DNA of 32,000 nt. Origin: Limnohabitans parvus II-B4. Lineage in GTDB: Bacteria > Pseudomonadota > Gammaproteobacteria > Burkholderiales > Burkholderiaceae_C. The notes below the pieces were generated by a model. That model worked only from the letters and a program-made list of their open reading frames with translations. It was not told the DNA's origin and did not search any database. The stretch lies in NCBI RefSeq assembly GCF_003063455.1, contig NZ_NESN01000005.1, forward strand, positions 99,506 through 131,505, in the 5' to 3' direction. Each line of letters begins with the position of its first letter. Within the stretch, counting starts at the first letter, position 1. Below, in pieces: positions 4,157 through 25,056 of this stretch. A program made the translations under genes and the position numbers.

Positions 4157-5200
4157 ATGAAAAAAACTCTGATTGCTCTGGCTGCTGTTGCTGCCACCGG
4201 CGCTGCTTTCGCACAATCCACCGTGACTTTGTTCGGCGTGGCTGATACTGCCGTTACCTACACAAAAACAGGCGCAGCTAAGAAGACATCCATGACAACC
4301 AGCGGCCTGAACTCCAGCCGCATCGGTTTCCGTGGTGAAGAAGACTTGGGCGGCGGCATGAAAGCTGCCTTCCACATGGAAGCTGGCGTGAACACTGACA
4401 ACGGCACTGGCGCTGGCACAAACACAAACAACCAAGCTGCTGGTCAAATCGCAGGCACTACAACAGTTGGCTCGCAAGGCCTGACTTTCAACCGTCGCAT
4501 GACTGCCAGCTTGATGGGTGGTTTCGGCGAGTTGCGCGTTGGCCGTGACTACACACCTTTGTTCTGGAACCAGACTGTGTTTGATCCGTTCGGCACCAAC
4601 GGTGTTGGCGCATCGCAAGCCAACGCAGCTGCTAACCCAGCCTCTTTGGTTGTTGGCGTGCGTGCTTCCAACAGCATCGGCTACATGTCACCTTCTTTCA
4701 ACGGCTTCCAAGTCCAGTTGCAAACTTTCTTGGGTGAAAACGCATCCAACGACGCCGCTACCGGTAAAAACTCTGGTTCCGGCAATGGCCTGCGCGCCAC
4801 TTACGCTCAGGGTCCTGTGAGCCTTGCTTTGGCAACTGCCAAGTACGACACAGATTTGAACGTCAAACACGAAGGCACCAACTTCGGCGCTTCTTATGAT
4901 CTGGGCGTTGCCAAGATCATGGCTGTTTACTCGCAAGACCAAGACTCCACAAGCGGCGTTGACGCTGCCAAAGTCAAAGGTACTTTGATTGGCTTGACAG
5001 CTCCCCTGGGTGCTGGTGTTGCCAAGGCTGCATGGTCCAACTCCAAGCAAGGCGCTACAGTTGACACTGACAAATTTGCTGTTGGCTATGTTTACAACTT
5101 GAGCAAGCGTACAAGCATTTACACAACATTTGCTAACACCAAGCCAAAAACTGGCGACAAGACTACAGGTTTCGACCTGGGTCTGTCCCACTCCTTCTAA
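4157..5200 (+). CDS. Gram-negative general porin (Omp32/OmpC-like), the only copy with RBS, ATG and a complete signal peptide
   Basis: GGAGAA RBS at 4145-4150, ATG at 4157. Signal peptide MKKTLIALAAVAATGAAFA|QSTV. Conserved GFRGEEDLGGG motif and C-terminal ...GLSHSF (terminal Phe). The track ORF starting at 3959 is an in-frame upstream extension. Confidence 0.95.
   Translation: MKKTLIALAAVAATGAAFAQSTVTLFGVADTAVTYTKTGAAKKTSMTTSGLNSSRIGFRGEEDLGGGMKAAFHMEAGVNTDNGTGAGTNTNNQAAGQIAGTTTVGSQGLTFNRRMTASLMGGFGELRVGRDYTPLFWNQTVFDPFGTNGVGASQANAAANPASLVVGVRASNSIGYMSPSFNGFQVQLQTFLGENASNDAATGKNSGSGNGLRATYAQGPVSLALATAKYDTDLNVKHEGTNFGASYDLGVAKIMAVYSQDQDSTSGVDAAKVKGTLIGLTAPLGAGVAKAAWSNSKQGATVDTDKFAVGYVYNLSKRTSIYTTFANTKPKTGDKTTGFDLGLSHSF
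4173..4236 (+). repeat. Candidate att core copy 1 (attL-like), inside the signal-peptide codons of the expressed porin
   Basis: 64 bp identical to 11184-11247. The first 25 bp are identical to 25304-25328 and the first 12 bp (TTGCTCTGGCTG) to 18473-18484. All copies are in direct orientation. Confidence 0.6.
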
Positions 5201-5206
5201 TTTGAC

Positions 5207-5272
5207 GCTGGCGCAAGCCAGCTGAGAGTTAAAAGCTTAAAACCCCACCGTGGCAACACGGTGGGTTTTTTC
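5207..5272 (+). terminator. Porin terminator module: GNRA-looped hairpin plus rho-independent terminator
   Basis: GCTGGC-GCAA-GCCAGC at 5207-5222. Then CCCACCGTG-GCAA-CACGGTGGG at 5244-5265, followed by TTTTTT. Confidence 0.85.
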
Positions 5273-5347
5273 TTGCCTGCACGCTGTGCGGCAGTCATGA
5301 AACAACGGTGAGCAAGGGAAAACACTGGTGCTGCACAGTGTTGTTGC

Positions 5348-5356
5348 TGATAAATT
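5348..5356 (+). promoter_or_regulatory. Extended -10-like promoter (TGATAAATT) for the small basic-protein gene
   Basis: The same TGATAAAT motif sits at the same relative position in elements B (12444-12451) and C (19733-19740). It is preceded by the conserved inverted repeat AACACTG...CAGTGTT (5321-5342). Confidence 0.4.
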
Positions 5357-5389
5357 TAACAAATCAACAACACCAACTTGGAGCGAGAC

Positions 5390-5629
5390 ATGGCTACAGC
5401 AGCAGACTTGGCAGCAAAAAAGAAGGCGGCAGAAGATGCAACAGCGGCATATCAAGCAGCAGTTGATGCAGCACGCGAAGAAGATTTGAAGACTGCAAAG
5501 GCACTTATTGAATTGCACGAATTCAAAGTTGCAGACTTGAAGCCTGAACTGAAATTAACACGTACGCCAGCAAAGAAGGCTGCAACTAAAAAGCCTGCAG
5601 CCAAGAAGTCATCACGCCACAAAAGTTGA
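5390..5629 (+). CDS. Small coiled-coil protein with Lys/Ala/Pro/Thr-rich basic tail (resembles an H-NS N-terminal domain but lacks the canonical DNA-binding domain)
   Basis: GGAG RBS then ATG at 5390. The sequence MATAADLAAKKKAAED...ALIELHEFKVADLKPE...TPAKKAATKKPAAKKSSRHKS has paralogs at the same position in elements B and C. Confidence 0.7.
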   Translation: MATAADLAAKKKAAEDATAAYQAAVDAAREEDLKTAKALIELHEFKVADLKPELKLTRTPAKKAATKKPAAKKSSRHKS

Positions 5630-5672
5630 GCGCACTGATGCGCTGCATGCTCAGTACTCAGCGCAGATATGG

Positions 5673-6581
5673 TTGACGCGGATTGCCAAACGCATCGACG
5701 ATCTGCACTATCAAAACTTCCATGTGCCAGTGTTGCAGCACCAAGAGCGTGTGCTGCGCGAAATGGGCTGTAACCAACAGTACCAAGTTGGTCATGTACA
5801 TGCAGACGCTGACTACGTGGATGCACAAGAGCGGTACACATATACAACACCCACTTGGCCTTTGCGTGCAGAGTTGACGGCGCAGCAAGTTCAGCAACTG
5901 CAAGCCATCAACTCAGCAGTACGTGCAGCGCTGCAACACAGGACAATCACACTGTCGCAGCTGCGCCGTGCATTGACACCACAACAGTTGCAAGAGTTTG
6001 CAGCAAGTTTGGCAGATGTGCATGAACCCAGTGAAATCATGTACGGCGGCGGCATGCCAGAACCACTGCGCGACTACAACGCTGCATTGAGAGCAGCAGA
6101 TTTCGCATGGTCAAGATTTGAAGCACAACCAACAACACCAAGACACAACGCACTCAGCGTAAAAAAAGCAGGTGCGAGCATGGAAGATCGCGCCATCAGT
6201 TTATATGAACATGCGATTGAGCGGTTGGCTGACATTTTTACCAGTGCACAGCGTGGTGATTACGGTGCAGGCATGTATGGCGAGTTGCAAACATGGATGG
6301 ACAGAACAGTTGAGTTCGATTCGCTGATGCCGAATGCAGTTGACACCAATCCATATGCAATGCCGCGAGTGCGCGGGAGTAAATCACGTTATGCACAAGA
6401 CTCAGGATTGCCCAAGCTGAGCAAACGCATCAAGCGTGAGTACTGTGCATTGATTTCGCTTCTGGTTGCAGGATGTGAATTGGCGTTTGTGTTACCTGTG
6501 CAGAAACCACAAGCCATGACACATCAAGAACAACAGCAGCAGCGTGACAAGCTTCGCATGCTGTTGCGCAAGCTCAAGTGA
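5673..6581 (+). CDS. Hypothetical protein, 302 aa (paralog of 20103-20990)
   Basis: Long ORF. Shares blocks with the element C paralog: RIDDLHYQNF/RILELEYINY and PRVRGSKSRYAQDSGLPKLSKRIKREYCAL/PRVKGSTSHYALDAGLPKLSVRLKREQCVL. Start codon uncertain (TTG 5673). Confidence 0.65.
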   Translation: MTRIAKRIDDLHYQNFHVPVLQHQERVLREMGCNQQYQVGHVHADADYVDAQERYTYTTPTWPLRAELTAQQVQQLQAINSAVRAALQHRTITLSQLRRALTPQQLQEFAASLADVHEPSEIMYGGGMPEPLRDYNAALRAADFAWSRFEAQPTTPRHNALSVKKAGASMEDRAISLYEHAIERLADIFTSAQRGDYGAGMYGELQTWMDRTVEFDSLMPNAVDTNPYAMPRVRGSKSRYAQDSGLPKLSKRIKREYCALISLLVAGCELAFVLPVQKPQAMTHQEQQQQRDKLRMLLRKLK

Positions 6582-6590
6582 GTGTCGCTG

Positions 6591-7157
6591 TCAAACCATT
6601 TCCACAGCGTTGCGCTTCATGTCGTCGTTGACGTCGATGTATTTTTGGGTCACAGCAATGCTGCGGTGTCCCGCTAACTCAGCCAACACCCGCACGCCAA
6701 TGCCACGTGATGCCAGCAAAGTTATGAATGATCTCCTCATCGAATGTGAGCTGGCTCCAGCAATGCCCGCACGCTTGAACAAGTAGTGAAAGTGCTGCGC
6801 CATCACGTTGGCGCTGAAGCGCTTGCGCCCCGCAGTGATGAACAGGGGGTTGGTAGCTGGAACAAGTCCACGCAGGTCCAAGTAGGCTTGCAGTTCATCA
6901 CGAAGCTTCTGCGGCAAGAACACTGTGCGTGGATGACGTCCCTTGGTCTGCGCCGCAGTGAGGCGTATTTCTGCACGCACACTGCCATCTGTGTTGCGCA
7001 CGTCACCCACTGAGAGACTGGCGATTTCTCCTACGCGAACGCCTGACCACAAGCCTGTCAAAAACATCACTCTATTGCGCATGGCGTAGCTGCGCGGTTG
7101 GATGTATTGCAGCACTTGTTCAATTTCTGCAGGGGTCAGTGTTTTGGCTTGGCTCAT
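6591..7157 (-). CDS. Small (about 188 aa) tyrosine recombinase, catalytic domain only, FimB/FimE-like size
   Basis: Catalytic residue contexts: GVRVGEI (Arg), HSMRRSF (His-x-x-Arg), LAGHRSIAVTQKY (His and Tyr). Start chosen at MSQAKTLT by alignment with the B and C paralogs (MAQAK, MAAAK). Confidence 0.85.
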   Translation of the reverse strand: MSQAKTLTPAEIEQVLQYIQPRSYAMRNRVMFLTGLWSGVRVGEIASLSVGDVRNTDGSVRAEIRLTAAQTKGRHPRTVFLPQKLRDELQAYLDLRGLVPATNPLFITAGRKRFSANVMAQHFHYLFKRAGIAGASSHSMRRSFITLLASRGIGVRVLAELAGHRSIAVTQKYIDVNDDMKRNAVEMV

Positions 7158-7474
7158 GGTGTGTTGGGTGTTTTTCAAATCGTTGCAGTCCTTTTAGTGT
7201 GTTTGGTTTGATGTTTTTGGGCGACCAATGCCCCGAAAAAATCACGGGGCAAATTTCCGTAATGATTTCAACCAGGTAAACCTAATCGTGATTTCATTTG
7301 GTGCTGTATTTATGTCGCGCCGCATGCAAGTTGTGCGAACTGCGCTACATCTCGCCAGCGATTGCATAAAACAGCGCTGCAGCGCTTGTGCGGAGTTCCA
7401 GCTACGTGGGGTGCTGGACTGGCGTGATCGCTGCGCACAGCGCTGATTTGAGGTGTGGGCTGCTGTAGTGTGAG

Positions 7475-7509
7475 CACTGCGCCAGCAAGACGGGACTGCT
7501 GGCGCAGTG
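7475..7509. repeat. Perfect 13-bp-stem hairpin (CACTGCGCCAGCA-N9-TGCTGGCGCAGTG)
   Basis: Read directly. Lies in the 430-bp noncoding gap between the small recombinase and the 118-aa ORF. Confidence 0.6.
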
Positions 7510-7612
7510 TCCACACATGCATGCATGCCCCGCAGGGTACACGGGTTACAGGTCGCACGTGAGCACAAGAGAGTCAACACTGCGCTGATGTTCTACATCT
7601 AAACGCACTGAA

Positions 7613-7969
7613 ATGAATGAATTTGAACCAGCCCAACTCGATCTGTTCACAGGCACTGAGCGCTACTACCGTATCACTCGCAGGTGCTTGCTAACAGATG
7701 GCACCAAATACCTCGCAGATGCAGCAGGTGCCTATTGGCTCATGGATGCCATTGCCAGCCATTTGCATGAAATTGGAACTGCGGATTGGTTTGTGCTCGT
7801 GCGCATGCATGTAACCAACACTCATGCGGTCATGACCTACGAGGATGGTCGTGGTCATGAGCACGCAACTCAAGTGATTGGCTACACAGACTTTCCCATG
7901 GCTTCAGTGACCATTTACGCCTGCTGGGACAGTGAGCATTGGGTGCTGATGTTGCCCACTGAGTATTGA
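7613..7969 (+). CDS. Hypothetical protein, DUF6876-like (family common on plasmids and ICEs), present in element A only
   Basis: 118-aa ORF. LTDGTKYLADAAGAYWLMDAIASH and a C-terminal VLMLPTEY resemble my recollection of DUF6876 proteins. Confidence 0.5.
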   Translation: MNEFEPAQLDLFTGTERYYRITRRCLLTDGTKYLADAAGAYWLMDAIASHLHEIGTADWFVLVRMHVTNTHAVMTYEDGRGHEHATQVIGYTDFPMASVTIYACWDSEHWVLMLPTEY

Positions 7970-7984
7970 AGTGATTGCACAAAC

Positions 7985-8395
7985 CCCAAGCGAACTCGCG
8001 TTCGCTGTGCACTCGCATGATGCGTCGCTGTCGCTCTGCATCATGCTCTGCACTGAATTTTTCTTGAGCAGACATGTGAGCAGCTGTGAACGAAGCCGAA
8101 CATCACGCAGTGATGGGAGGGGTATTGGGCTCATTTAGATTAGATTGGACACACGACGGCTATAGCACGAGAGCCACTCTGGTGCTATCAGCCGCCGTGT
8201 CGTGTAGTGTCATTTGAGTTGAGTCGTACTACACGCTCGTAAAAGAGTTTTAAGGGAGGCAGATGTATTGAAACTCCCAGTTGCGCATCGCAACCACTCT
8301 GCGGCATCACCTATTGCTCACACACCTTTACGACGATGTGTGTAGGGCGGGGTCATTAGCCGTCATATTCCAACCCGCGTTTTTGCCATTTTTTG
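7985..8395 (+). ncRNA. Hairpin-rich conserved noncoding element (structured RNA or folded-ssDNA site), copy 1
   Basis: No conserved ORF. Alignable to 22025-22400 with compensatory changes in several stems. The last covarying stem is followed by a T-rich tract on the + strand (GCGGG...CCCGC GTTTTT), which weakly suggests + orientation. Confidence 0.55.
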
Positions 8396-8432
8396 GCGAG
8401 TGACTTACTCGCATGAATTCCTCAGCTGCAGA

Positions 8433-8753
8433 TCAGCCAGCGCTGCCCAATTTCCTTTTGATCAACTTGGCGTATTTGCGCTGAGCTTGTTTGGTGATGT
8501 TCAAGACCTTGAAGCACTGACCTTGCGTGATCTTGCTGCGCTTGGCGCCATTGGCTGCACGCAGAAAATTATTCAGCGTGGCTGCTTGGTTTTGCTCCAG
8601 CAGCTTGACATGATTTTTTAGCGTGTTTGTTGCCAGCTTTTGCGCTTGGAACAGCTCTGCAGTGCCCACATAGATTTGATTGGCGTTGATGCCATTGCTT
8701 TTGAGCCATGCATCTGTCTTCTGCCTGTCCGTGATGTTCTTGAATGTTTCCAT
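8433..8753 (-). CDS. Hypothetical protein, about 106 aa (paralog 22461-22781); one arm of a divergent switch
   Basis: METFKNITDRQKTDAWLKSNGINAN... aligns with MNNYKNFKDDGLTADWLRDNGINVQ... in element C. An ATAAAT hexamer lies 6 nt upstream of the ATG and there is no Shine-Dalgarno sequence. Confidence 0.6.
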   Translation of the reverse strand: METFKNITDRQKTDAWLKSNGINANQIYVGTAELFQAQKLATNTLKNHVKLLEQNQAATLNNFLRAANGAKRSKITQGQCFKVLNITKQAQRKYAKLIKRKLGSAG

Positions 8754-8820
8754 GCAAGTATTTATGAATGCCAAATAAGACCGTGCTTTTTTCGTGGCGA
8801 TATTTGGCATAAATACCTGC

Positions 8821-9009
8821 ATGCAAATACATGAAGTCGTGATCAAGCCCAAAACGCCAGAGCAGCACCGCATTGATACCCTCAAAGCCACCAAAGACAG
8901 GGCAGCGGATGCTCTGGCTGTAGAACGTCAGCGCCAAAAGATCAGCAAGGCGCAGAAGGCAATGAATGCCGCACAGCAGTCAGCCAGCGTCACGCCCAAC
9001 GTCCCGTAA
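8821..9009 (+). CDS. Small hypothetical protein, 62 aa, M-x-I-x-E-[IV] family; other arm of the divergent switch
   Basis: MQIHEVVIKPKTPEQHRIDTLK... resembles MRINEIINTIKPKPPMTPAQSRLNSLK (element C) and MKISEI... (element B). An ATAAAT hexamer lies 6 nt upstream of the ATG. Confidence 0.5.
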   Translation: MQIHEVVIKPKTPEQHRIDTLKATKDRAADALAVERQRQKISKAQKAMNAAQQSASVTPNVP

Positions 9010-9151
9010 CTGGACGTTGAGTGTCGTGCGGCACGTCACCTTGCATCATGCGCAGCACATGACCCGTCATGTTCGCGGGTTTCTGGTCGCTGATGCCATC
9101 AAATGATCACAAAATTGTCTGTGCTTTACAAACATTTGAAAGGAAGAGCAC

Positions 9152-9595
9152 ATGACAGCCATTTTGAACACACTCAAATTGACCGCAGCACGCAAAACCC
9201 GTGCACTGCCCACAGTGGTCAAGCGTCGCAACAAACTCTTGATCAAACTGGGCGAGCAGCGCATGCTGGCAGATGCACAGGCGCAAGGACTGCATTACAC
9301 CCCCACACGTTACCGCTCATTCAAAGACGCTGACACTGGCGCACGCATCGCCAAACAAGTACCTGTTCGCATCAAGCCATGGTTTTGGATTGGGGAAAAG
9401 GGAGAGTGCTTGCTGGCAATCAACTACGGCAGCAAGCAAATTGAACTGCAAAAAGGAAAAACTGCCATTGACGTGGGTGACGTTGCAAACCTGTGTGCCG
9501 TGCTGGACACAGTGATTGACGCTGTGAAAAACGGTGAACTTGATCCGCAGATTGAGTCAGCCAGCGTGAAACTGCGCGAAGGCTTCAAGAAATAA
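9152..9595 (+). CDS. Conserved 147-aa integrase-associated hypothetical protein
   Basis: AAAGGAAG RBS. Near-identical paralogs at 16428-16871 and 23264-23707. Convergent with the integrase, and its 3' end overlaps the integrase 3' end. Confidence 0.8.
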   Translation: MTAILNTLKLTAARKTRALPTVVKRRNKLLIKLGEQRMLADAQAQGLHYTPTRYRSFKDADTGARIAKQVPVRIKPWFWIGEKGECLLAINYGSKQIELQKGKTAIDVGDVANLCAVLDTVIDAVKNGELDPQIESASVKLREGFKK

Positions 9596-10940
9596 CGGAT
9601 GGGCTGTGCTGACGAGTCCTGCGACTTTGCAGCATGCCAATGTTCTGCTCGCCCGTTACCGTGCTGGCGTAGTGCTGGTTGATCATGTCCACACTGGTGC
9701 GTGCATTGCGTGCCAGTGTCAGCAAGTCAATGCCTTGTCCGTATAGCAAACGGAAGGTGATGCTGGAATGGCGCAGACTGTACAAGCTGCGCTCTTGTCC
9801 GTGCGCACCCAACTTCAACCCAGTGCGTGCCAAAACCCAGTTGAAATAAAACGCCAGCACCCAGTGCGCATAAGCACGATCACGCAAGTACGGCAGGAAC
9901 AGGTAGTTGTCTGGTGCTGCAAGGTTCTGTGCGCTGTAGTGCTGCGTGATCTGTTGATAGATGCGCACTGCAGGCTGCAGCGTGACGATGGGGCGTGAGT
10001 GGCTTTTTGTTTTGGGCAAGTTCAGGCGCAGGTAAGTGTTGTCATTGCGCACCACTTCTACGTGTCTGTGCTTGAGGGTTTTCAAATCGCTTGGGCGTAT
10101 GAAGCTGTTGACCATAAAACCAATGCACCACGCAACATCTGGCGGCATGGTGTACTCAGCTGAGCGCAAACGGTAGTTTTTGCGCAGTGTGCTGTCGCTG
10201 TCAGGGTGTCTGGTGTGCTGCAGCTTGCGAGCAGTGCGCATGATCTGCCAGTATTCAGTGGGTGTAAAAGCGCCGCGACTGTTGGTTTGTACTTTGATCT
10301 TGGGAAACTCTGGCAGCTTGTCCAGCGCATTCACTGCCACAGCCAGTGTCAATATCTTGCGCACAGCAACCAAGTACTGGCTGACGGTGATGGTTGAGAA
10401 ACTCTTGCTCAGGTACTGAGTGAATACCAGCAGTTCAGCGTGATCCACAGCAGCAGGTGATAGTTTGCCCCAGCGCGGCAGTATGTGTGCATCCAGTCTG
10501 TTGCGCAGCACTTTCAAGCTGCCTGCTGAAAACTCACCGCGCTCCACACGAGCTTGTTCGTTTGTGATCATTTGCGCTGCCATTGCAGCAAATGTTTTCT
10601 GGGGTTTGACTGCAGTGGTCGCGAGAGATACGACACCTTGTATTGGCGTTGGTTTAATGCGCAAACTGGCAGACTGCGCCAGCAGTTGCTCGTAAAAGTC
10701 ACGTGCAAAGCTTTGAGCCATGCGCAGGCTTTGCGTCTGTGTGCTGCGTCTGTGTGTGCGTCCTTCAATCCAGCAGCGCACTTGCCAAAACTTGCTGGCA
10801 GCTATTTTGAACACAGATAGTTTGCGGGGATAGCCAGGTACTGGTGTGATGGTCGCAGGAATGGGCACTGTGCGCTCACGTGCTTGAGTGCGTAGCACTG
10901 GGTCGTTGGCTGCAGCTGCGGTAAAAACGGTCAACATCAC
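9585..10940 (-). CDS. Tyrosine-type site-specific integrase (451 aa), element A
   Basis: C-terminal catalytic contexts FIRPSDL (Arg), YSLRHSSITF (Arg-His) and MINQHYAS (Tyr). Paralogs occur in elements B and C. Confidence 0.9.
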   Translation of the reverse strand: MMLTVFTAAAANDPVLRTQARERTVPIPATITPVPGYPRKLSVFKIAASKFWQVRCWIEGRTHRRSTQTQSLRMAQSFARDFYEQLLAQSASLRIKPTPIQGVVSLATTAVKPQKTFAAMAAQMITNEQARVERGEFSAGSLKVLRNRLDAHILPRWGKLSPAAVDHAELLVFTQYLSKSFSTITVSQYLVAVRKILTLAVAVNALDKLPEFPKIKVQTNSRGAFTPTEYWQIMRTARKLQHTRHPDSDSTLRKNYRLRSAEYTMPPDVAWCIGFMVNSFIRPSDLKTLKHRHVEVVRNDNTYLRLNLPKTKSHSRPIVTLQPAVRIYQQITQHYSAQNLAAPDNYLFLPYLRDRAYAHWVLAFYFNWVLARTGLKLGAHGQERSLYSLRHSSITFRLLYGQGIDLLTLARNARTSVDMINQHYASTVTGEQNIGMLQSRRTRQHSPSVIS

Positions 10941-11183: not shown

Positions 11184-12295
11184 TTGCTCTGGCTGCTGTT
11201 GCTGCCACCGGCGCTGCTTTCGCACAATCCACCGTGACTTTGTTCGGTGGCGCTGACCTGAACTACCGCTCTGTCACTTCCGGCGCGAACAAGTTCAGCG
11301 GTATGGCTCAAGACGGTATCTACTCCAGCCGTTTTGGCGTGATGGGTACTGAAGATCTGGGCGGCGGCTTGAAGGCTGGCTTCCACTTCGAAGGCGGCAT
11401 GGCTCCTGACGTCGGCACTTCAACTGGCTTCAACTTCACACGCAAGTCCACCATCGGTTTGTCCGGCGGTTTCGGTGAAGTCCGCTTCGGCCGTGACTAC
11501 ACCCCTATGTTTACGGTCGCTGGTATCGCTGATCCATTCGGCACCAACGGTGTGGGTTCTTCCTACAACGTTGCTAACGGTGTGACCTCAGATGGCGTGA
11601 TTGCTGCAGCTGGTTCATTTGCAACAGCTCAAGCTGCTGCTGCCGCAACAACACCTGCCTCCACAGTTGCAGCTGGCGCTGTTTACGCTGATCCAAACGC
11701 TGTTCGCGCTAACAACAGCATTGCTTACTACAGCCCATCTTTCAGTGGTTTCACTGTTAGCGGTATGTACAGCTTCGGTGGCGAGAACACCAACGTGGCC
11801 AAGAAAGCTGGCACTATGTCCAGCATCAAATTGGCTTACGCCAACGGTCCAGTTTCCGTTGCTTTCGGTAACCAAATCACCAAAGGTGGCGTTGCAACAA
11901 CTTCCGCTGCTGACACTGAAAAGTGGACAACCAACTTCTTGGCTGGTGCTTATGACCTGGGCGTTGCTAAGTTGAGCTTGGGTTACAAAACTGACAAGTT
12001 GTCATTTGCTGACGACGCAAGTGTGAAGTCCATGATTTACGGTGTTGCTGCTCCTATGGGTGCTGTGACTTTGAAGGCTTCTTACGTTACTGCTAAGGCT
12101 GACGGCGATAAAATGGCAAACCAGTTCGCCTTGGGTGCAGTGTATGACCTGAGCAAGCGCACTTCTGCCTACGCTACTTACTCAACTCTGAAGAACGAAG
12201 AAGGTTCTGGTAAGAGCGTTGGTTCCGCTGCAGCTAGCGATTTCACTGGCCTGCGTTCCAAAGGCTTCGAAATCGGCGTGAAGCACACTTTCTAA
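11180..12295 (+). CDS. Porin, full-length but start-less and promoter-less copy 2
   Basis: The frame is open from 11168, after an in-frame TGA at 11165-11167. It encodes ..IVALAAVAATGAAFA|QSTVTLFGG..., then GTEDLGGG, and ends GVKHTF. There is no in-frame ATG; the track ORF starts at GTG 11234, inside the mature protein. Confidence 0.8.
   Translation: MVALAAVAATGAAFAQSTVTLFGGADLNYRSVTSGANKFSGMAQDGIYSSRFGVMGTEDLGGGLKAGFHFEGGMAPDVGTSTGFNFTRKSTIGLSGGFGEVRFGRDYTPMFTVAGIADPFGTNGVGSSYNVANGVTSDGVIAAAGSFATAQAAAAATTPASTVAAGAVYADPNAVRANNSIAYYSPSFSGFTVSGMYSFGGENTNVAKKAGTMSSIKLAYANGPVSVAFGNQITKGGVATTSAADTEKWTTNFLAGAYDLGVAKLSLGYKTDKLSFADDASVKSMIYGVAAPMGAVTLKASYVTAKADGDKMANQFALGAVYDLSKRTSAYATYSTLKNEEGSGKSVGSAAASDFTGLRSKGFEIGVKHTF
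11184..11247 (+). repeat. Candidate att core copy 2
   Basis: 64/64 identical to 4173-4236. Divergence is abrupt on both sides. Confidence 0.6.
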
Positions 12296-13736: not shown

Positions 13737-15311
13737 ATGACTGCGCAAACAATCAAGCTCACAGCAAGTGACGCTGTTGCAGCAGCACTCAAACGTGCAA
13801 TGCCCAAAACAAACAAAGCGCAATTGGCATTGGCAAAGTACATCAGCGTGCTTGAGCAGCATTTGGAGCAATCGCTGCTGCACATGGATGACAACATGTA
13901 CAGGTTTTTCAGACACTTTTATGTGAGCACGCACGATTTGACGCTGCAAGTGGGGCAGTTTGTGATTGATGGCAAAAGGCAGTACTTGCACAAGTGGCTG
14001 GAGTCAAACCGTTTGAATCTTGTTGCTGTGGTTTCAACAGGACAAAAAGGCGGGGATTATTCCACGGTGCAACTGACGCGGTATGTGACCATGACTGATG
14101 CCATGGACATCAATCAATTGCGCAAGAAGACGATAAATGAATTGGATGCATTGCTCAAAGACAATTCACTGACGGATTCGGATTTCTTTTACAAGATATT
14201 TCCAGACTTTGCCGCAATGAGCAAAGCAGAAGTTGATGAAAACTACGATCTGTGTCCAGTGGATGTGGCATCACTCAAACAGTTCATTGTGTTCTTGACC
14301 AAACGAGCAAACAAGATGAACGATGTGCAGCGGCAGATGTTGGTGCGACAAGCACAAGCGATTGTGAGAATTGCACAAGCGGGCAGCAACACATTGCCCA
14401 TGAAAAAGAATCCCAGTCACTTTGGGCGCATGTACTACACGGGTGCACTGAATGTGCAATCAATTAGAACAGTGCTGCGTCATGCCATGCTGGGCGACTG
14501 CTATGAATACGACATCCGTTCAAGTGTTGTGGCATGGAAGCTGGGTTTTGCTTGGATGATTTGCGAGAAAAATGGAATCGTACCGCATGAGTTCAATGCG
14601 TCATTTGCAACTTGCTTGAGTTATTTGACGGACAAAAAAGCATTCAGAGAAACAATCAGGCAGCAGACATTTGGCGGCGGTACGCATATCAGCGCGGACA
14701 TGCAGCTGGATGTGGTCAAACAAGCACTGACTGCAATCAGCTTTGGCGCGAGAAAGACAACACAAGGTTGGATTGATCGCAGCGGCAAAGCATTTAATCC
14801 TGCAATCGTCAAAATCATTGCAGATGAGCACGCACGCAGCAACTTCTACGCTTGTGCTGAGGCAGCAGCGTATATGGACGAGAACAAGCGCATGGACGAG
14901 ATCATCACTGAGTATGCAAAAGAAAACGATCCAGCACTGCTCGCAGACACCGAACTGCAAACAGCATCAGGACGAATAAGCAAAAGCAAATTGATGTCGT
15001 TCTTGTATCAACAGTCAGAGTCAATTGTGATGGACATTGTTCGCAGAGAAGTTGGTGCGGTTTACAAAACAGTTTTGGCGAACGTGCATGATGCCATTTA
15101 CATCAATGAGCGGCTGCACAGTGCAGACAAGAAACGAATTGAACTGCTGATGCGCAGAGAAACGGGATTGCAGTTTTGGTATTTGGATGAAGAAAAAATT
15201 ACGGGCTACAAAGGTATTTCTGACGAAGTGCGCAAGGCAGAGCTGGCACACAAGGCGTTGATTGCGCAGCAAGAACAGTTGGCAAAGAGCTACGTGCCCA
15301 AAAACTTCTGA
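13737..15311 (+). CDS. 524-aa protein with family-A (PolI/T7-like) polymerase palm-and-fingers-like motifs; candidate minimal polymerase
   Basis: GGGAG RBS. FGRMYYTGALNVQSIRTVLRHAM...CYEYDIRSSVVAWKL resembles TGRLSS-PNLQNIP-IRxAF-DYSQIELRVLAH. KQALTAISFGARK resembles motif B (AKxINFG). ANVHDAIYI resembles motif C (QVHDE). Confidence 0.45.
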   Translation: MTAQTIKLTASDAVAAALKRAMPKTNKAQLALAKYISVLEQHLEQSLLHMDDNMYRFFRHFYVSTHDLTLQVGQFVIDGKRQYLHKWLESNRLNLVAVVSTGQKGGDYSTVQLTRYVTMTDAMDINQLRKKTINELDALLKDNSLTDSDFFYKIFPDFAAMSKAEVDENYDLCPVDVASLKQFIVFLTKRANKMNDVQRQMLVRQAQAIVRIAQAGSNTLPMKKNPSHFGRMYYTGALNVQSIRTVLRHAMLGDCYEYDIRSSVVAWKLGFAWMICEKNGIVPHEFNASFATCLSYLTDKKAFRETIRQQTFGGGTHISADMQLDVVKQALTAISFGARKTTQGWIDRSGKAFNPAIVKIIADEHARSNFYACAEAAAYMDENKRMDEIITEYAKENDPALLADTELQTASGRISKSKLMSFLYQQSESIVMDIVRREVGAVYKTVLANVHDAIYINERLHSADKKRIELLMRRETGLQFWYLDEEKITGYKGISDEVRKAELAHKALIAQQEQLAKSYVPKNF

Positions 15312-15642
15312 GTGTTGCGTTTGACTCACACTGCTGCAACAAAATATTATTGCGATTCAACTTAGAAAGTTGCATTGCACTTTGCGCTGCGCTGCTAGAC
15401 TTGTTTAAACAAGCTGTGCTGCGTTATTTTTGAAAATGCATACGCGGTATGCTGAGTGAGCCGTTAAGGGTTTGTGCGCTGTTTTGCGCAATCGCAGACC
15501 AAGTGAAATTACACTAATATTTGGTTTTGCAAAAAGGCAATACATTCGTACAAGTTTCAGGTGTGATTGTTTTGGTTGTCCGCGTAGATGTTTGGTTGCA
15601 CACTTGCATTGAATAAATATTTGATAGCAAGGAGTGGCAAAT

Positions 15643-16242
15643 ATGGCGCAAGCAAAGGTACTGACACAAGATGAAGTTGAACGAGTGATGCAATATCTCG
15701 GCAAGAAGCAGCACGCAATGAGAAACCAAGCAATGTTCTTGTTGACGCACGGATGTGGCGTGCGCATCAAAGAGTTGGTCAGCATGCGTATCTGTGATGT
15801 GTTGGAACGCAACGGCGATATCAAGCAAGAAGTCAATCTCAACAGAAACCAAACCAAGGGCGCTCGTGGGCGCACTGTGTATCTGGCTGACAAAATGCGT
15901 GATGTGATTCGCAACTATTTGCGCGAAAAATTTGGTGTGCAGGATTTATTGGCTGTGACCATGTCAAACACAAGTCGCGCACTGTTTGCTACGCAAAAGA
16001 GCGCTGACCGTGGGTTTTCTGCATCAACTGGCTGTCAAATGTTTCACTACTGGTACAAGGACTGTGACATTGTTCATGGCAGCAGTCACAGTGGTCGTCG
16101 TTCATTCATTACGAATTTGGCGAACAAAGGCGTGGCGATTCATGTGTTGAAAGAGTTGGCAGGACACAGATCTATTGTGGTCACCGAAAAGTACATTGCA
16201 AAGAATCCAACGGTGCTGCACGCAAGTGTCAACATGCTGTAA
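15643..16242 (+). CDS. Small (about 199 aa) tyrosine recombinase, element B paralog, on the opposite strand relative to A and C
   Basis: AAGGAG RBS. MAQAKVLTQDEVERVMQYL. Catalytic contexts GVRIKEL (Arg), HSGRRSF, LAGHRSIVVTEKY. Confidence 0.85.
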   Translation: MAQAKVLTQDEVERVMQYLGKKQHAMRNQAMFLLTHGCGVRIKELVSMRICDVLERNGDIKQEVNLNRNQTKGARGRTVYLADKMRDVIRNYLREKFGVQDLLAVTMSNTSRALFATQKSADRGFSASTGCQMFHYWYKDCDIVHGSSHSGRRSFITNLANKGVAIHVLKELAGHRSIVVTEKYIAKNPTVLHASVNML

Positions 16243-16427: not shown

Positions 16428-16871
16428 ATGACAGCCATTCTGAACACATTGAAGTTGACTGCAGCCCGCAAGACACGTGCACTGCCTGACGTTGTCAAAC
16501 GCCGCAACAAGCTGCTGATTAAATTGGGCGAGCAGCGCATGTTGGCAGCTGCACAGGCGCAAGGGCAGCACTACACGCCCACACGCTTTCGCTCATTCGC
16601 AGATGCTGACACTGGTGCACGGGTTGTTAAACAAGTGCCTGTTCGCATCAAGCCGTGGTTTTGGACTGGAGAGAAGGGCGAGTGTTTGCTGGCTATCAAC
16701 TATGGCAGCAAGCAAATTGAACTGCAAAAGGGCAAGACTGCCATCGATGTTGGTGCAGTTGAGAACATATGCGCAGTCTTGGACACGGTGATTGATGCTG
16801 TGCGCAATGGTGAACTGGACACGCAGATTGAAAGTGCCAGTGTAAAACTGCGCGATGGATTCAAGAAATAA
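16428..16871 (+). CDS. Conserved 147-aa integrase-associated hypothetical protein, element B
   Basis: AAAGGA RBS then ATG at 16428. MTAILNTLKLTAARKTRALP... is nearly identical to 9152-9595. Confidence 0.8.
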   Translation: MTAILNTLKLTAARKTRALPDVVKRRNKLLIKLGEQRMLAAAQAQGQHYTPTRFRSFADADTGARVVKQVPVRIKPWFWTGEKGECLLAINYGSKQIELQKGKTAIDVGAVENICAVLDTVIDAVRNGELDTQIESASVKLRDGFKK

Positions 16872-18228
16872 CTGTGTGTGATAACTGGCTGTGCTGACGA
16901 GTACGGCGACTTTGCAGCATGCCAATGTTCTGCTCGCCCGTTACGGTGCTGGCGTAGTGCTGGTTGATCATGTCCACACTGGTACGTGCATTGCGTGCCA
17001 GTGTCAGCAAGTCAATGCCTTGTCCGTAGAGCAAGCGAAACGTGATGCTTGAATGGCGTAGGCTGTACAAGCTGCGCTCTTGTCCATGCGCACCCAGCTT
17101 TAATCCAGTGCGTGCCAATACCCAGTTGAAATAAAAGCTCAGCACCCAGTGCGCATAGGCGCGGTCACGCAGGTGCGGTAGAAACAAGTAGTCGTCTGGT
17201 GCAGCAAGGTTCCGTGCGCTGTGGTGTTGGGTCAGCTGCTGGTAAATGCGAACAGCAGGTTGTAGCGTGACGATGGGACGAGTGTGGCTTTTGGTTTTGG
17301 GTAGGTTCAGGCGCAGGTAGGTATTGCCGTTACGCACCACTTCCACGTGTCTGTGCTTGAGTGTTTTGAGGTCGCTTGGGCGTATGAAGCTGTTGACCAT
17401 AAAACCTATGACCCATGCAACATCTGGCGGCATGGTGTACTCAGCTGAGCGCAAGCGATAGCTTTTGCGCAGTGTGCTGTCGCTGTCAGGGTGTCGTGTG
17501 TTTTGCAGCTTGCGAGCAGTGCGCATGATCTGCCAGTACTCTGTGGGCGTGAATGCGCCGCGCGAGTTGGTTTGCACTCGAACTTTGGGAAACTCTGGCA
17601 ACTTGTCCAGCGCATTCACTGCCACAGCCAGTGTCAATATTTTGCGCACTGCAACCAAGTACTGGCTGACGGTGATGGTGGAAAAGCTCTTGCTCAGGTA
17701 CTGCGTGAATGCCAGCAGCTGTGCGTGGTCAATGTCCTCTGGTCGTTGTTTACCCCAGCGCGGCAAGATGTGTGCATCCAGTCTGTTGCGCAGAACTTTC
17801 AAGCTGCCTGAACTAAACTCGCCGCGCTCAACACGGGCATGCTCGTTTGTGAGCATCTGCGCTGCCATTGCAGCAAAGGTCAGCTGTGGTTTGACTGCGG
17901 TGATGTGAGAAACGACACAGGATGTTGATGTTGGTGTTGGCTCAGTGCGCAAACTGGCAGACTGCGCTAGCAATTGTTCATAAAAGTCACGTGCAAAGCT
18001 TTGTGCCATGCGCAGACTTTGCGTTTGTGTGCTGCGTCTGTGTGTACGTCCCGCAATCCAGCAGCGCACTTGCCAAAACTTGCTGGCAGCTATTTTGAAC
18101 ACTGATAGTTTGCGGGGATAACCTGGCACTGGTGTGATGGTTGTAGGAATGGGCACTGTGCGCTCACGTGCTTGAGTGCGCAGAACTGGGTCGTTGGCTG
18201 CGGCTGCGGTAAAAACGGTATGCATCAC
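16861..18228 (-). CDS. Tyrosine-type site-specific integrase (455 aa), element B
   Basis: Highly similar to 9585-10940 along the whole length, with the same catalytic contexts. Confidence 0.9.
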   Translation of the reverse strand: MMHTVFTAAAANDPVLRTQARERTVPIPTTITPVPGYPRKLSVFKIAASKFWQVRCWIAGRTHRRSTQTQSLRMAQSFARDFYEQLLAQSASLRTEPTPTSTSCVVSHITAVKPQLTFAAMAAQMLTNEHARVERGEFSSGSLKVLRNRLDAHILPRWGKQRPEDIDHAQLLAFTQYLSKSFSTITVSQYLVAVRKILTLAVAVNALDKLPEFPKVRVQTNSRGAFTPTEYWQIMRTARKLQNTRHPDSDSTLRKSYRLRSAEYTMPPDVAWVIGFMVNSFIRPSDLKTLKHRHVEVVRNGNTYLRLNLPKTKSHTRPIVTLQPAVRIYQQLTQHHSARNLAAPDDYLFLPHLRDRAYAHWVLSFYFNWVLARTGLKLGAHGQERSLYSLRHSSITFRLLYGQGIDLLTLARNARTSVDMINQHYASTVTGEQNIGMLQSRRTRQHSQLSHTVIS

Positions 18229-18472: not shown

Positions 18473-19581
18473 TTGCTCTGGCTGTTTTGACAGCTTCTGG
18501 CATTTCTTTCGCTCAATCTTCCGTGAGCATTTACGGTCGCCTTGATGTTGGCATGAACAACCAAAAGACAACTGGTACCACCACTATTGGTAGTGCTTCA
18601 ACTTCTACCTTTTACAAAGGCAACAACCTTGTGAATGAAGACGGTCTGTCGACAGGTCTCCTGGGCTTCAAGGGCACTGAAGACTTGGGCGGTGGCTTGA
18701 AGGCCAACTTCGTCCACGAAATGGACTTGGACTTGGACGTTGGCGCACTGGGCGTTGCCGCTGGTCGTGATTCAACTCTGGGCTTGTCTGGTGGTTTCGG
18801 CGAAATTCGCTTGGGCCGTTCATACACGCCTTTGTACTCCACCATTGGTGCCTCAGACGTTTTTGGCACAACAGGTGCTGGCACGGTCAACCAGTTCGGT
18901 ATGGCAGCTAATGCAGTTCGTGCTTCCAATGCATTCTTCTATGCATCACCTTCATTCAGCGGTTTGACCGTTCGCTTGATGGCCCAGCAAAACAATGCAC
19001 AAACAAACGCATCTGTTGGCGGAGCTGGTAAAACATCTGGCAACGGTTTTTCTGTGACCTACGCAGCAGGTCCTTTGATGTTGGCAGCAGCTACAGGCAC
19101 TGAAAAAGGTTCTTCTATTGACCGCGCTGGAGCCTTGTTCGCAGCAACTGCTGCAGCTGCAACTACAGCAGGAACAGCAACAGCAAACGCTAATGCCAAG
19201 TACACAGGTTCTGCCATTTCTGGTCAGTACGACATGGGTGTTGCCAAGTTCTTTGTTGGTTACACAACCACCAAGGATGACAACGACACGTCCGTTGCTG
19301 GCGGCGAGTTGACTATGAAAGAAACCAACTTTGGTGTTGCCGTACCAATGGGTGCATTGACATTGATGGCTGCTGTTGGCAACAACAAAGGTTCTATGGC
19401 AGGTGAACCAGTCACTGCCAAAGGTACTGACATGGCTGTTGGTGCAACCTATGCTTTGAGCAAGCGCACCACTGCTTACTTCAAGACTGGTACTTACAAC
19501 AAGTACAAAGCTTCTGATGTTGGTGGTTCTGAAGAAGTTAAGACAACCCGTACCAGCGTTGGCCTGCGTCACCTTTTCTAA
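18466..19581 (+). CDS. Porin, full-length but start-less and promoter-less copy 3 (most divergent)
   Basis: The frame is open from 18466, after an in-frame TAA at 18463-18465. It encodes AFVALAVLTASGISFA|QSSVSIYG..., then GTEDLGGG, and ends GLRHLF. The only candidate starts (TTG 18487, CTG) would give a signal peptide with no charged N-region. Confidence 0.8.
   Translation, partial: AFVALAVLTASGISFAQSSVSIYGRLDVGMNNQKTTGTTTIGSASTSTFYKGNNLVNEDGLSTGLLGFKGTEDLGGGLKANFVHEMDLDLDVGALGVAAGRDSTLGLSGGFGEIRLGRSYTPLYSTIGASDVFGTTGAGTVNQFGMAANAVRASNAFFYASPSFSGLTVRLMAQQNNAQTNASVGGAGKTSGNGFSVTYAAGPLMLAAATGTEKGSSIDRAGALFAATAAAATTAGTATANANAKYTGSAISGQYDMGVAKFFVGYTTTKDDNDTSVAGGELTMKETNFGVAVPMGALTLMAAVGNNKGSMAGEPVTAKGTDMAVGATYALSKRTTAYFKTGTYNKYKASDVGGSEEVKTTRTSVGLRHLF
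18473..18484 (+). repeat. Candidate att core copy 3 (12-bp TTGCTCTGGCTG)
   Basis: This 12-mer is the only stretch shared perfectly by all four porin 5' ends. Confidence 0.5.
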
Positions 19582-21559: not shown

Positions 21560-22024
21560 GTTGTTCTCCAAATAATGTTGCTGATTTAAGTATGTTGTCT
21601 TTGGTGCTGGTTGGACAAGAAAAACCTGATGTATTGGCGGTGTATTGGTGATCTGTTGAATAACAAGCGGTTGTTGTGCCGTCCACACAGTTCATGCATT
21701 CTCTTATCTCGTGTATTTATTCATCGCACTGTGCAGTTGAGCAGCGTTTGACGTGCAAGCAGGTGCAGACTGCGTAAAACGCCCTACAGCGCACTGACAG
21801 CAGCGCCAGCATCGCAACGGGCAAGGCGCACCAAACGAACGCTTGTGCGTTGGATTTGACGTGCTGCTGCGTGTTGCTGCCCAAATCTCATCTGCTGCCA
21901 CAAAAAATCTGCTGCGTAATTTCTGCGTGGTTGCGAGATCTCGATTGTTGGTGATTTGCTCTAACACTGGTGTTGAACAAGAGTGTGGTCATACTTTCGT
22001 ATGACCTGTGTTGTTCTGTGCTGT

Positions 22025-22400
22025 GTAGAGCGAACTTGACGTTCGCTTGTGTGTCGCTTGTCGCTCACACAAGTTGCTTCGCATTCGTGTGTGATAACTG
22101 AACTGATGAATGAAAGCCGAACAGCACGAAGTGATGTGAGGGGTATTGGGTTGATTTAGATTGAACGAGCGCACGACGGCTATAGCACGAGAAAAAATCT
22201 TGGTGCTATTAGCCGCCGTTTCGCATAGTTTGATTTGAGTATCACTTCACTACACGACTGCAATAGAGTTTCTTGGAAGACTGATGTATTGAAACTTCCA
22301 GTTGCATCACGCAACTACTCTGTGGCATCACCTATGGATCACACGCTATTGCAACAACGTGTGTAGGGCAGGGTCATTAGCCGTCATATTCCCCCCTGCG
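22025..22400 (+). ncRNA. Hairpin-rich conserved noncoding element, copy 2
   Basis: Aligns with 7985-8395. Stems are preserved by compensatory substitutions. No conserved ORF. Confidence 0.55.
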
Positions 22401-22460
22401 TTTGTTCCCTTTGTTGGCAAGTGGATAATCTTGCGTTGAATGTGTGTGTGAATGCTGCTG

Positions 22461-22781
22461 TTAAACAGCTTGACGCTGGCGTCTGCGCTGTTTGTACAAG
22501 CCACGCTTGACACGTGCGCAGAGATTGAGAACGCTGTAGCACAGACCGTCCGTGATCTTGCCACGCTTGTTGTTGTCCGCGTAGCAACGCCTGAAGTGTT
22601 CCAGCAGCCGTTTGCTTGCGTTGTCCAGTTGCGCACTGTGTTGCTCAAGCAGGTGCGTTGCCGCTTGTTGTGCCTGTAGCGTTTTGGCGTTGGTGCTGGC
22701 GAATGTTTGTACGTTGATGCCGTTGTCACGCAGCCAGTCCGCTGTAAGTCCGTCATCTTTGAAGTTCTTGTAGTTGTTCAT
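22461..22781 (-). CDS. Hypothetical protein, about 106 aa (paralog of 8433-8753)
   Basis: MNNYKNFKDDGLTADWLRDNGINVQ.... A CTAAAT hexamer lies 6 nt upstream of the ATG. Confidence 0.6.
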   Translation of the reverse strand: MNNYKNFKDDGLTADWLRDNGINVQTFASTNAKTLQAQQAATHLLEQHSAQLDNASKRLLEHFRRCYADNNKRGKITDGLCYSVLNLCARVKRGLYKQRRRQRQAV

Positions 22782-23712: not shown

Positions 23713-25056
23713 TCAAGACGCGGGCAGCTGACGGCTGCGTCTGCTTTGCAGCATGCCAATGTTTTGCTCGCCAGTGACAGTGCTGGCGTAGTGCTGGTTG
23801 ATCATGTCAACACTGGTTCGTGCGTTGCGTGCCAGTGTCAGCAAGTCAATGCCTTGTCCGTACAGCAAGCGAAACGTGATGCTGGAGTGACGCAGGCTGT
23901 ACAAGCTGCGCTCTTGTCCGTGTGCACCCAGTTTAAGTCCTGTCTTGGCCAAAACCCAGTTGAAGTAAAACGCCAAGACCCAGTGTGCGTAGTGACGATC
24001 TTGTAAATGCGGCAAGAACAAGTAATCGTCTGGCTTGGTTAAATCTGTTGCGCTGTAGTGTTTGCACATCTGCTGGTAAATGCGAACAGCAGGTTGCAGC
24101 GTGACAATGGGTTTGGTGTGGCTTTTGGTTTTGGGCAAGTTAAGACGCAGGTAAGTGTTGTCGTTCCGTACCACTTCAACGTGTCTGTGTTTGAGCGTCT
24201 TTAAGTCGCTGGGTCGTATAAAGCTGTTGACCATGAAACCAATGCACCAAGCAACATCAGGTGGCATGGTGTTTTCTGCAGCACGTAGTCTAAAATTCTT
24301 ACGCAGTGCAGTGTCACTGTCTGGATGTCTGGTGTTTTGCAGTTGACGTGCAGTGCGCATGATGCGCCAGTATTCTGTGGGTGTAAATGCGCCGCGACTG
24401 TTGGTTTGCACTTTGATCTTGGGAAACTCTGGCAGCTTGTGCAGTGTGTCAACTGCAACAGCCATGGTCAGTACCTTGCGAACTGCCACCAAGTACTGGC
24501 TGACAGTGATGGTGGAAAAACTCTTGCTCAAGTACTGCGTGAATGACAAAAGCTGTGCGTGATCTACGGCAGAAGCTGGCATCGTGCCCCAGCGCGGCAG
24601 TATGTGTGCATCCAAACGGTTGCGTAGCACTTTGAAACTTCCAGCACTGAATTCACCACGATCAACACGTGCTTGTTCATTGGCCATCATCTGCGCTGCC
24701 AGTGCTGCAAATGTGTGTTGTGGTTTGACAGTGCGTGGTGTGTGCTGCACATCTTCAAGTTTGTTGGTGACAGATGGCGGCAAACTGGCGGACTGCGCTA
24801 GCAGTTGTTCATAAAACGTTCGCGCATAACTTTGAGCCATACGCAGGCTTTGTGTTTGAGTGCTGCGCCTGTGTGTGCGTCCCGCAACCCAGCAGCGCAC
24901 TTGCCAGAACTTGCTGGCAGCGATTTTGAATACTGACAATTTGCGGGGATAGCCTGGCACAGGTGTGATGGTGGCAGGAATGGGCACGGTGCGTTCGCGT
25001 TGTTTGCTGTGCATGAGCGTGTCGTTTGCGGCTTGTGCAGTAGAAAAGGTGTGCAT
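23713..25056 (-). CDS. Tyrosine-type site-specific integrase (447 aa), element C
   Basis: Paralog of the A and B integrases with the same catalytic contexts. Confidence 0.9.
   Translation of the reverse strand: MHTFSTAQAANDTLMHSKQRERTVPIPATITPVPGYPRKLSVFKIAASKFWQVRCWVAGRTHRRSTQTQSLRMAQSYARTFYEQLLAQSASLPPSVTNKLEDVQHTPRTVKPQHTFAALAAQMMANEQARVDRGEFSAGSFKVLRNRLDAHILPRWGTMPASAVDHAQLLSFTQYLSKSFSTITVSQYLVAVRKVLTMAVAVDTLHKLPEFPKIKVQTNSRGAFTPTEYWRIMRTARQLQNTRHPDSDTALRKNFRLRAAENTMPPDVAWCIGFMVNSFIRPSDLKTLKHRHVEVVRNDNTYLRLNLPKTKSHTKPIVTLQPAVRIYQQMCKHYSATDLTKPDDYLFLPHLQDRHYAHWVLAFYFNWVLAKTGLKLGAHGQERSLYSLRHSSITFRLLYGQGIDLLTLARNARTSVDMINQHYASTVTGEQNIGMLQSRRSRQLPAS

Follow-up and report, generated by a model that had tools for sequence, protein, structure and literature searches.

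Few large noncoding elements with complex folds are known, and new biochemistry has tended to emerge from each of them. Here, we describe such an element of about 430 nucleotides (nt) in a 32,000-nt stretch of DNA from Limnohabitans parvus II-B4 (contig NZ_NESN01000005.1, positions 99,506 to 131,505 of the forward strand), hereafter called the window, whose first letter is position 1 of all coordinates below. Three ~7-kb integrative elements (A, B, and C) lie in tandem within the window, spanning 4173-25373; the noncoding structured stretch occurs in A and C and is lacking from B. Its copy in A lies tail to tail with the gene for a basic, all-helical protein of 106 amino acids (aa), here called p106, and a homologue of that gene lies by the copy in C.

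The large, “ornate” phage-associated noncoding RNAs GOLLD, ROOL, and HEARO (PMC5737381, PMC12286853) are, like the structured element, several hundred nt long, with many covarying helices, a pseudoknot, and a function that is not obvious from context, and they are likewise found in phages, prophages, and lake metagenomes. In contrast, the structured element is smaller (~430 nt), did not match their covariance models, and has a single small protein gene, not tRNA clusters, as its fixed neighbor. Antisense and immunity RNAs of plasmids and satellites (ColE1 RNA I/RNA II with Rom, the P4 CI RNA, and the P1/P7 c4 RNA) offer another likeness: noncoding sequence rich in hairpins on a small mobile replicon, a short sequence and its complement within one region (here GACGGCTA and TAGCCGTC), an adjoining gene for a small helical protein, and both strands apparently constrained to Watson-Crick pairing. 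Unlike these RNAs, the structured element has a core with a three-way junction and a pseudoknot, its complementary 8-mers are invariant and do not diverge into specificity types, and neither C4 nor the other Rfam models matched it.

Single-strand origins and initiation signals (ssoA/ssoU of rolling-circle plasmids, ssi/Frpo of conjugative plasmids, and the complementary-strand origins of G4 and M13) are also noncoding, 150-400 nt long, and composed of several hairpins whose pairing is kept by compensation. Strict Watson-Crick pairing is expected for DNA, and single-strand origins and ssi/Frpo sites act as single-stranded DNA in one orientation, with a stem that forms promoter-like -35/-10 boxes, on replicons with a single-stranded stage. 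The structured element differs from these single-strand origins in its pseudoknot and junction, in its occurrence within the tail-gene region of a tailed phage, in that no promoter-like stem was found in 7500-9200, and in having no rolling-circle Rep or relaxase in Pfam, PHROGs, and PADLOC scans of neighboring proteins. A gene for a small basic helical bundle followed by a structured noncoding RNA in phage tail-fiber regions further recalls the diversity-generating retroelements (avd, template repeat, spacer RNA), and the top Foldseek match of p106 in PDB was Avd, at a nonsignificant level (E = 2.1, TM 0.33). We rejected a retroelement of this kind, as no locus contained a reverse transcriptase and no pair of template and variable repeats was present. 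Large structured noncoding elements of phages and mobile elements are a known category, to which the structured element adds a new family.

Compensatory changes preserve a pseudoknotted fold

Relatives were gathered in two ways, through homologues of the p106 protein and then through an exact 20-mer, GGGTCATTAGCCGTCATATT (8350-8369). The contigs encoding nine p106 homologues all hold the noncoding element, and the 20-mer was identical in 11 of 11 copies found via the protein. Scanning for the 20-mer gave matches in 27 genomes, at least 120 metagenome contigs, and 9 IMG/VR contigs; the genomes include Limnohabitans, Polynucleobacter, Polaromonas, Oxalobacteraceae, Rhodocyclales, Methylopumilus, and Neisseriaceae. 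The family numbers more than 150 public loci from freshwater Betaproteobacteria genomes, lake metagenomes, and IMG/VR phage contigs, with 116 full-length copies of less than 97% mutual identity, all of them collinear. Its parts are as follows, in copy A coordinates except for the second line.

7989-8412: copy A of the structured element
22029-22440: copy C, with H1 at 22029-22047, H2 at 22046-22073, and the 3' domain at 22257-22407 (offset +14021 from A)
7989-8006: H1, palindrome AGCGAAC-N4-GTTCGCT, conserved in sequence with only the loop varying; in about half of the family
8007-8053: H2, with an outer helix (8007-8011/8049-8053) and a variable inner helix (8015-8023/8038-8046)
8101-8115: H3, CATCAC-GCA-GTGATG, with a variable stem that is 97% paired and has 4 of 6 pairs in several Watson-Crick types
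8151-8200: H4, a long imperfect hairpin with a nearly invariant 11-nt 5' arm, ACGACGGCTAT (8152-8162), and a variable 3' arm and apical part
8201-8235: H5, CGTGTAGT/ACTACACG, with a conserved core CGTGT/ACACG
8237-8243 (TCGTAAA) with 8327-8333 (TTTACGA, in the H8 loop): pseudoknot, from RNAalifold
8244-8300: three-way junction, in which P3 (8244-8248/8296-8300) encloses H6 and H7
8254-8258/8274-8278: H6, with a conserved 15-nt loop
8280-8285/8289-8294: H7, variable
8299-8305: CTGCGGC, invariant, after the junction
8310-8313/8343-8346: P5, stacked on H8
8319-8324/8337-8342: H8
8347-8378: H9, a 5-base-pair (bp) stem GCGGG/CCCGC with a nearly invariant 22-nt loop that contains most of the 20-mer
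8379-8395: T-rich tract between H9 and H10
8396-8401/8407-8412: H10, with a stem that varies with compensation and a conserved loop

The initial annotation, made from the letters of the window alone, had described two noncoding stretches that align, and the mean column identity between copies A and C is indeed 80%. All of the hairpins that it named exist, where it had placed them or nearby: AGCGAAC/GTTCGCT at 7989-8006; GCATGATGC/GCATCATGC at 8015-8046 in A, which corresponds to CTTGTGTG/CACACAAG at 22046-22073 in C, with the loop TCGCT(N)TCGCT; GGCTATAGCAC/GTGCTATCAGCC at 8158-8193; GGGAG/CTCCC at 8254-8278, which is GGAAG/CTTCC in C; CACACA/TGTGTG at 8319-8342; and GCGGG/CCCGC at 8347-8378, which is GCAGG/CCTGC in C and is followed by the T-rich tract. 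Its extent of 7985-8395 ended slightly too early, as the element continues through the hairpin at 8396-8412. The pseudoknot of 8237-8243 with 8327-8333 and further, enclosing helices, found with RNAalifold, are additions to that description. Both arms of the stems differ between A and C, and folding z-scores controlled by dinucleotide shuffles were -4.8 and -5.9 for the two strands of copy A and -2.1 and -4.1 for those of copy C.

Pairing was measured against two controls, shuffled alignments and partners slid out of register. In a seed alignment of 20 copies, 96% of cells pair versus 85.5% after shuffling and 27-45% with slid partners, and 18 of 35 pairs were compensatory; for the pseudoknot the count was 6 of 7. 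A covariance model of the 3' half of the element (R1, 152 positions) found all 100 of the 100 places where a match was expected; within the window it had two matches and no others, at 8236-8386 and, in copy C with 163.7 bits, at 22257-22407. In an alignment of 100 copies, 92.3% of cells pair (69.8% shuffled, 28-46% slid), 615 cells with double changes were observed against 158 expected, and 25 of 28 pairs were compensatory. The covariation of paired positions that had been proposed from two copies was thereby confirmed in 100 homologues, and the collection of homologues that the initial annotation had called for showed pairing kept by compensatory change beyond both controls, which is one general mark of a structured noncoding RNA. 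These data leave us in almost no doubt that this is a real, new structured element.

The same 100 copies gave support for individual helices of the 3' domain: P3 was 94.9% paired with compensatory changes in 5 of 5 pairs, H6 95.2% paired with 4 of 5, and H9 99.8% paired with 3 of 5, while P5 (97.4%) and H8 (93.3%) showed compensatory changes in all 10 of their pairs. The 7-bp pseudoknot occurred as 46 different 7-mers in 70 distinct copies, and it comprised 477 Watson-Crick cells, 1 G-U cell, and 6 A-C cells. In the 5' half, all 9 pairs of the H2 inner helix were seen as more than one Watson-Crick type, the apical extension of H4 varies with compensation, and H5 was 76% paired on the unrefined alignment versus 15-47% with slid partners. 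H1 was 99% paired in 28 copies, yet it is nearly invariant. The 14-nt H2 loop, GTCGCTGTCGCTCT (8024-8037), is conserved and contains two TCGCT repeats. IMG/VR copies retain the H2 loop, H4, and the entire 3' domain with different stems, and the H2 loop motif TCGCTNTCGCTC stands on a different stem there. The 10 nt after H9 contain a mean of 5.0 T, and the mean of A before H9 is 2.2; in some phage copies, the region of H10 and the T-rich tract falls inside the 3' end of a small open reading frame (ORF). One locus of unrelated context (L112, 792-817) carries an H9-type hairpin alone, with the same 20-mer loop, a 4-bp stem, and a T-run, so the terminal hairpin may be a module of its own.

Two complementary 8-mers stand apart from this pattern of variation. 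GACGGCTA occurs in the window only inside the two copies, once per strand of each (4 matches versus 0.3 expected), at the nearly invariant sites 8155-8162 (plus strand) and 8357-8364 (minus strand) of copy A, and it lies 180-250 nt upstream of the loop 20-mer in 108 of 116 copies. A long-range pairing of GACGGCTA with TAGCCGTC had been suggested in the initial annotation; the 8-mers are real, but no covariation supports their pairing. The H4 8-mer is altered in three lineages, to GGTGGCTA (L029), GACAGCTA (L034, L128), and GACGGCAA (L075, L143, L149), and each variant has a compensating change in the 3' arm of H4 itself and an unchanged loop copy, supporting the local hairpin and not the long-range pairing. 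Choosing loci by the 20-mer precludes a fair test of variation on the loop side. We also rejected the idea that the invariant loop is antisense to the DUF6641 start codon, as just 7 of 9 bases match.

No catalogued RNA or conserved protein accounts for the element. Rfam 15 gave no match to it at gathering scores or at lax E-values: the region 7900-8500 searched at E up to 10 had two chance-level matches only, and ten homologous loci searched at E up to 5 had nothing in the element. At gathering scores, the entire window matched RF02278 alone, outside the element; this match is a full-length Betaproteobacteria toxic small RNA at 1196-1257 on the minus strand (54.1 bits versus a gathering score of 50). 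A scan for tRNA and tmRNA found none, and full-text literature on DUF6641, DUF6876, and Polynucleobacter or Limnohabitans RNA motifs yielded no prior description. The lack of a conserved ORF was borne out as well. Frames from the only conserved ATG, which lies on the reverse strand of the invariant loop, run for 8-127 aa with no conservation beyond 8 residues, and we rejected the small peptide that they might encode (MTANDP...) on these grounds. Variation is compensatory in stems and not codon-periodic.

The structured element and p106 as a two-part module

The p106 genes of the window converge on the two copies of the structured element.

8433-8753, minus strand: p106 gene, encoding the 106-aa basic all-helical protein, tail to tail with copy A
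22461-22781, minus strand: p106 homologue by copy C, aligned with the p106 family

We collected 186 p106 homologues. A convergent ORF ends within 130 nt of the 20-mer in 150 of the 158 loci with enough flanking sequence, and 143 match the p106 profile. Most loci without a profile match have a short basic ORF at the same position, possibly a distant relative of p106. An AlphaFold model of p106 (pLDDT 82) has five helices, the C-terminal one long and basic. Integrative element B has neither the fold nor p106, yet it carries a small recombinase. To judge from this recurrent gene neighborhood, the structured element and the p106 gene are a fixed two-part module of tailed phages and small phage-like integrative elements in freshwater Betaproteobacteria.

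The IMG/VR contig UViG_3300023119_000224 (L170) is a genuine tailed phage in which genes for tail fiber, J-like, baseplate-hub, and fiber-assembly proteins flank the module. At 5128-8704 of this contig, the structured element and a p106 homologue lie between the J-like tail genes and the tail-fiber genes, beside an HNH-endonuclease-like ORF. By gene order, this location is a typical accessory-gene (“moron”) position.

Strand, RNA or DNA, and possible modes of action

The structured element is probably an RNA, since the combination of a pseudoknot, a three-way junction, and short, fixed helices capped by conserved loops looks more like an RNA-type tertiary fold than like a DNA site. Thermodynamics and gene layout lean to the minus strand of the window. 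In 16 of 20 diverse copies, it was the minus strand that had the lower composition-controlled z-score (mean of -3.5 versus -2.25), the minimum free energy was lower on that strand in 90 of 116 copies, and the consensus energy was -27.6 for the minus strand and -21.1 for the plus strand. Wobbles in H8 and the pseudoknot also favor the minus strand, and the four-base loops of H1 read as GNNA on it in 33 of 40. Furthermore, p106 is directly upstream on the minus strand with no terminator between it and the structured element, and in two loci (L164 and L166) a p106-like ORF overlaps H10 and the T-rich tract. The 5' side of the plus strand showed no sigma-70-like promoter; consensus scanning found none in 7500-9200 and only one weak minus-strand match near copy C.

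Our favored reading, held tentatively, is that the pseudoknotted multi-helix element of ~430 nt is a minus-strand RNA cotranscribed with p106 and acting with it. As a single strand, the sequence folds into H1-H5, a core whose three-way junction is pseudoknotted, and H9, the hairpin with the invariant loop. The functional strand would be the minus strand, given the gene layout, folding energies, and consensus energy, and the RNA would be made as a 3' extension of the p106 mRNA, since there is no terminator between them and the ORF runs into the first hairpins in some phages. The folded RNA and p106 may then form a putative ribonucleoprotein, in which p106 or a conserved host factor would contact the invariant loops, with a candidate role in phage/satellite regulation or interference.

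Several observations weigh against a minus-strand RNA acting with p106. An RNA is expected to tolerate G-U far more than A-C on one strand. Wobble cells in the plus-strand model mark no strand (48 G-U and 75 A-C, with 2457 Watson-Crick), and the helices disagree with one another, as in some of them G-U cells outnumber A-C cells on the plus strand (P2a, 7 versus 0; H3, 11 versus 2; P3, 19 versus 6). An almost pure Watson-Crick pseudoknot is unusual for RNA and fits DNA or two functional strands; the symmetry of wobbles is just as unusual and is compatible with single-stranded DNA or, again, with function of both strands. On the plus strand, a conserved T-rich tract comes after H9 in the manner of an intrinsic terminator, and the DUF6876 gene, on the plus strand, ends 19 nt before H1 in copy A, so that the plus strand is probably transcribed there too. 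The p106 model had no significant fold match in PDB or BFVD. Finally, the 20-mer owes part of its invariance to ascertainment, since most loci, the later ones, were picked by an exact match to it. A hairpin census showed no wobble enrichment, and a census of GNRA and UNCG tetraloops was ambiguous as to strand.

A small-RNA gene of its own on the plus strand, starting near H1/H2, stopping at H9 and its U-tract (~8385-8395), and convergent with p106, is the alternative that survives best, and we consider it rather unlikely. Such an RNA would either work in trans or pair as antisense with the 3' end of the p106 mRNA. In its favor are the T-richness of the 10 nt that follow H9 (a mean of 5.0 T across the family), the plus-strand excess of G-U in P2a, H3, and P3, the shared orientation with the flanking tail genes in L170, and the DUF6876 gene reading into copy A, whereas the folding statistics favor the other strand and no conserved promoter was found in 60 inspected upstream regions. 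Intrinsic terminators have a G+C-rich stem, a loop of 3-8 nt, and a U-run; the stem and T-rich tract at H9 are conserved, but the 22-nt invariant loop is far above this size and consensus scans called no terminator. In addition, terminator-like hairpins stand immediately before H1/H2 in several contexts, and in some phages the T-tract encodes lysine-rich ORF ends.

A cis-acting DNA element that would work as folded single-stranded DNA, or need both strands to fold, is unlikely in our estimate; it might, for instance, serve the phage or satellite as a replication origin, in packaging, or in single-strand initiation. What speaks for it is the almost strict Watson-Crick character of the helices, including the pseudoknot, with G-T (48) and A-C (75) cells about equally rare, together with the occurrence of the invariant 8-mer once per strand, the three TCGCT repeats, the sequence-conserved palindrome H1, and the presence of integrative elements A and C without a replication protein recognizable by Pfam, PHROGs, or PADLOC. 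Against this, folds that combine a 7-bp pseudoknot with a three-way junction and short, fixed helices bearing conserved loops are characteristic of RNA tertiary structure and are not known for single-strand origins. Stems contain no promoter-like hexamers, and in L170 the structured element is among tail genes at an accessory position rather than at a genome end or in a replication module. No plasmid or isolated-phage relative was found, either by blastn of the element against PLSDB plasmids and GenBank phages or by blastn of a phage-type copy against GenBank phages at E up to 10, both of which gave noise only.

We give little credence to a new class of assembling phage RNA in which the 8-mers GACGGCUA (H4) and UAGCCGUC (H9 loop) pair between molecules or, alternatively, both strands function. 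By analogy with phi29 pRNA rings or ROOL/GOLLD cages, intermolecular pairing would build a multimeric RNA or an RNA-p106 particle. Such pairing would account for the constancy of the 8-mers and for their absence from the local covariation, and the functioning of both strands would explain the wobble-free helices.

Least credible, and for the most part refuted, is a recombination site of the ~190-aa tyrosine recombinase, either an attC-like folded substrate or a fimS-like segment inverting between the 8-mers: a FimB/FimE-sized recombinase gene is nearby in A and C and inverted GACGGCTA copies lie ~200 bp apart, but element B has the recombinase without the fold, and inversion needs no covariation of internal helices. 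This disposes of the folded-DNA substrate for the small recombinase that the initial annotation had offered as a candidate role, since the constant neighbor of the fold is the p106 gene. Integron attC-like or CTX-like folded sites co-occur with their tyrosine recombinase and depend on it; here, tblastn for the small recombinase was negative in the IMG/VR copies and a Pfam/PHROG scan of the L170 ORFs matched no recombinase family. An invertible switch of the fimS type, whose segment between inverted repeats would occur in both orientations, is unlikely because the inverted-junction pattern ACGACGGCTAATGACCC had 0 matches in IMG/VR versus 9 for the normal junction and all 116 copies are collinear.

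Tandem integrative elements in the porin gene

The three integrative elements share an insertion site, a 73-nt repeat that is the portion of a porin gene encoding the signal peptide and that recurs at 4173-4245, 11184-11256, 18473-18545, and 25301-25373. All three have a porin body of their own, together with a large tyrosine integrase, a DUF6641 gene, and a small tyrosine recombinase of ~190 aa. Located genes include the following.

9585-10940, 16861-18228, and 23713-25056, minus strand: large tyrosine integrase genes
15634-16242: small recombinase gene of element B

As each element inserts in the signal-peptide part and supplies a porin body, the latest porin to be inserted would come under the host promoter and signal peptide, an arrangement that on gene layout would amount to serial porin replacement. 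An integrase beside a porin gene also recurs at related loci. Among the neighboring proteins, Pfam, PHROGs, and PADLOC recognized only the integrase, DUF6876, and DUF6641.

Other features of the tandem array vary among the elements. At 13737-15311 (plus strand), element B has a 524-aa ORF where A and C hold a 302/295-aa protein, p106, and the structured element; this ORF had no match in Pfam, PHROG, or PADLOC and may be an alternative module. The DUF6876 gene (7613-7969, plus strand), which sits between the small recombinase gene and the structured element, is found only in A among the three elements and at a few other loci (L001, L002). A conserved ORF of ~62 aa at 8821-9010 (plus strand), between p106 and the DUF6641 gene and divergent from p106, is called in most related loci. 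Immediately left of copy C, at 21987-22006, is an 8-bp hairpin, GGTCATAC-TTTC-GTATGACC, which occurs in both orientations at related loci (L023, L030, L046, L086, L100, L129, L146, L149, and L153) with a same-strand loop of TTTC or GAAA. From this distribution, the hairpin appears to behave like a small independent palindromic unit.

The structured element is abundant in lakes and extends across several freshwater Betaproteobacteria genera and their phages. It combines unusually clean covariation, a pseudoknot that is hypervariable yet strictly Watson-Crick, and an obligate small-protein partner. The element can be tested directly in cultured carriers, for example Limnohabitans strains MMS-10A-192, 2KL-51, and Rim47. 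The module is common to tailed phages and to 7-kb integrative elements that would swap a host porin gene, and this sharing points to an undescribed phage-satellite or superinfection-exclusion system.
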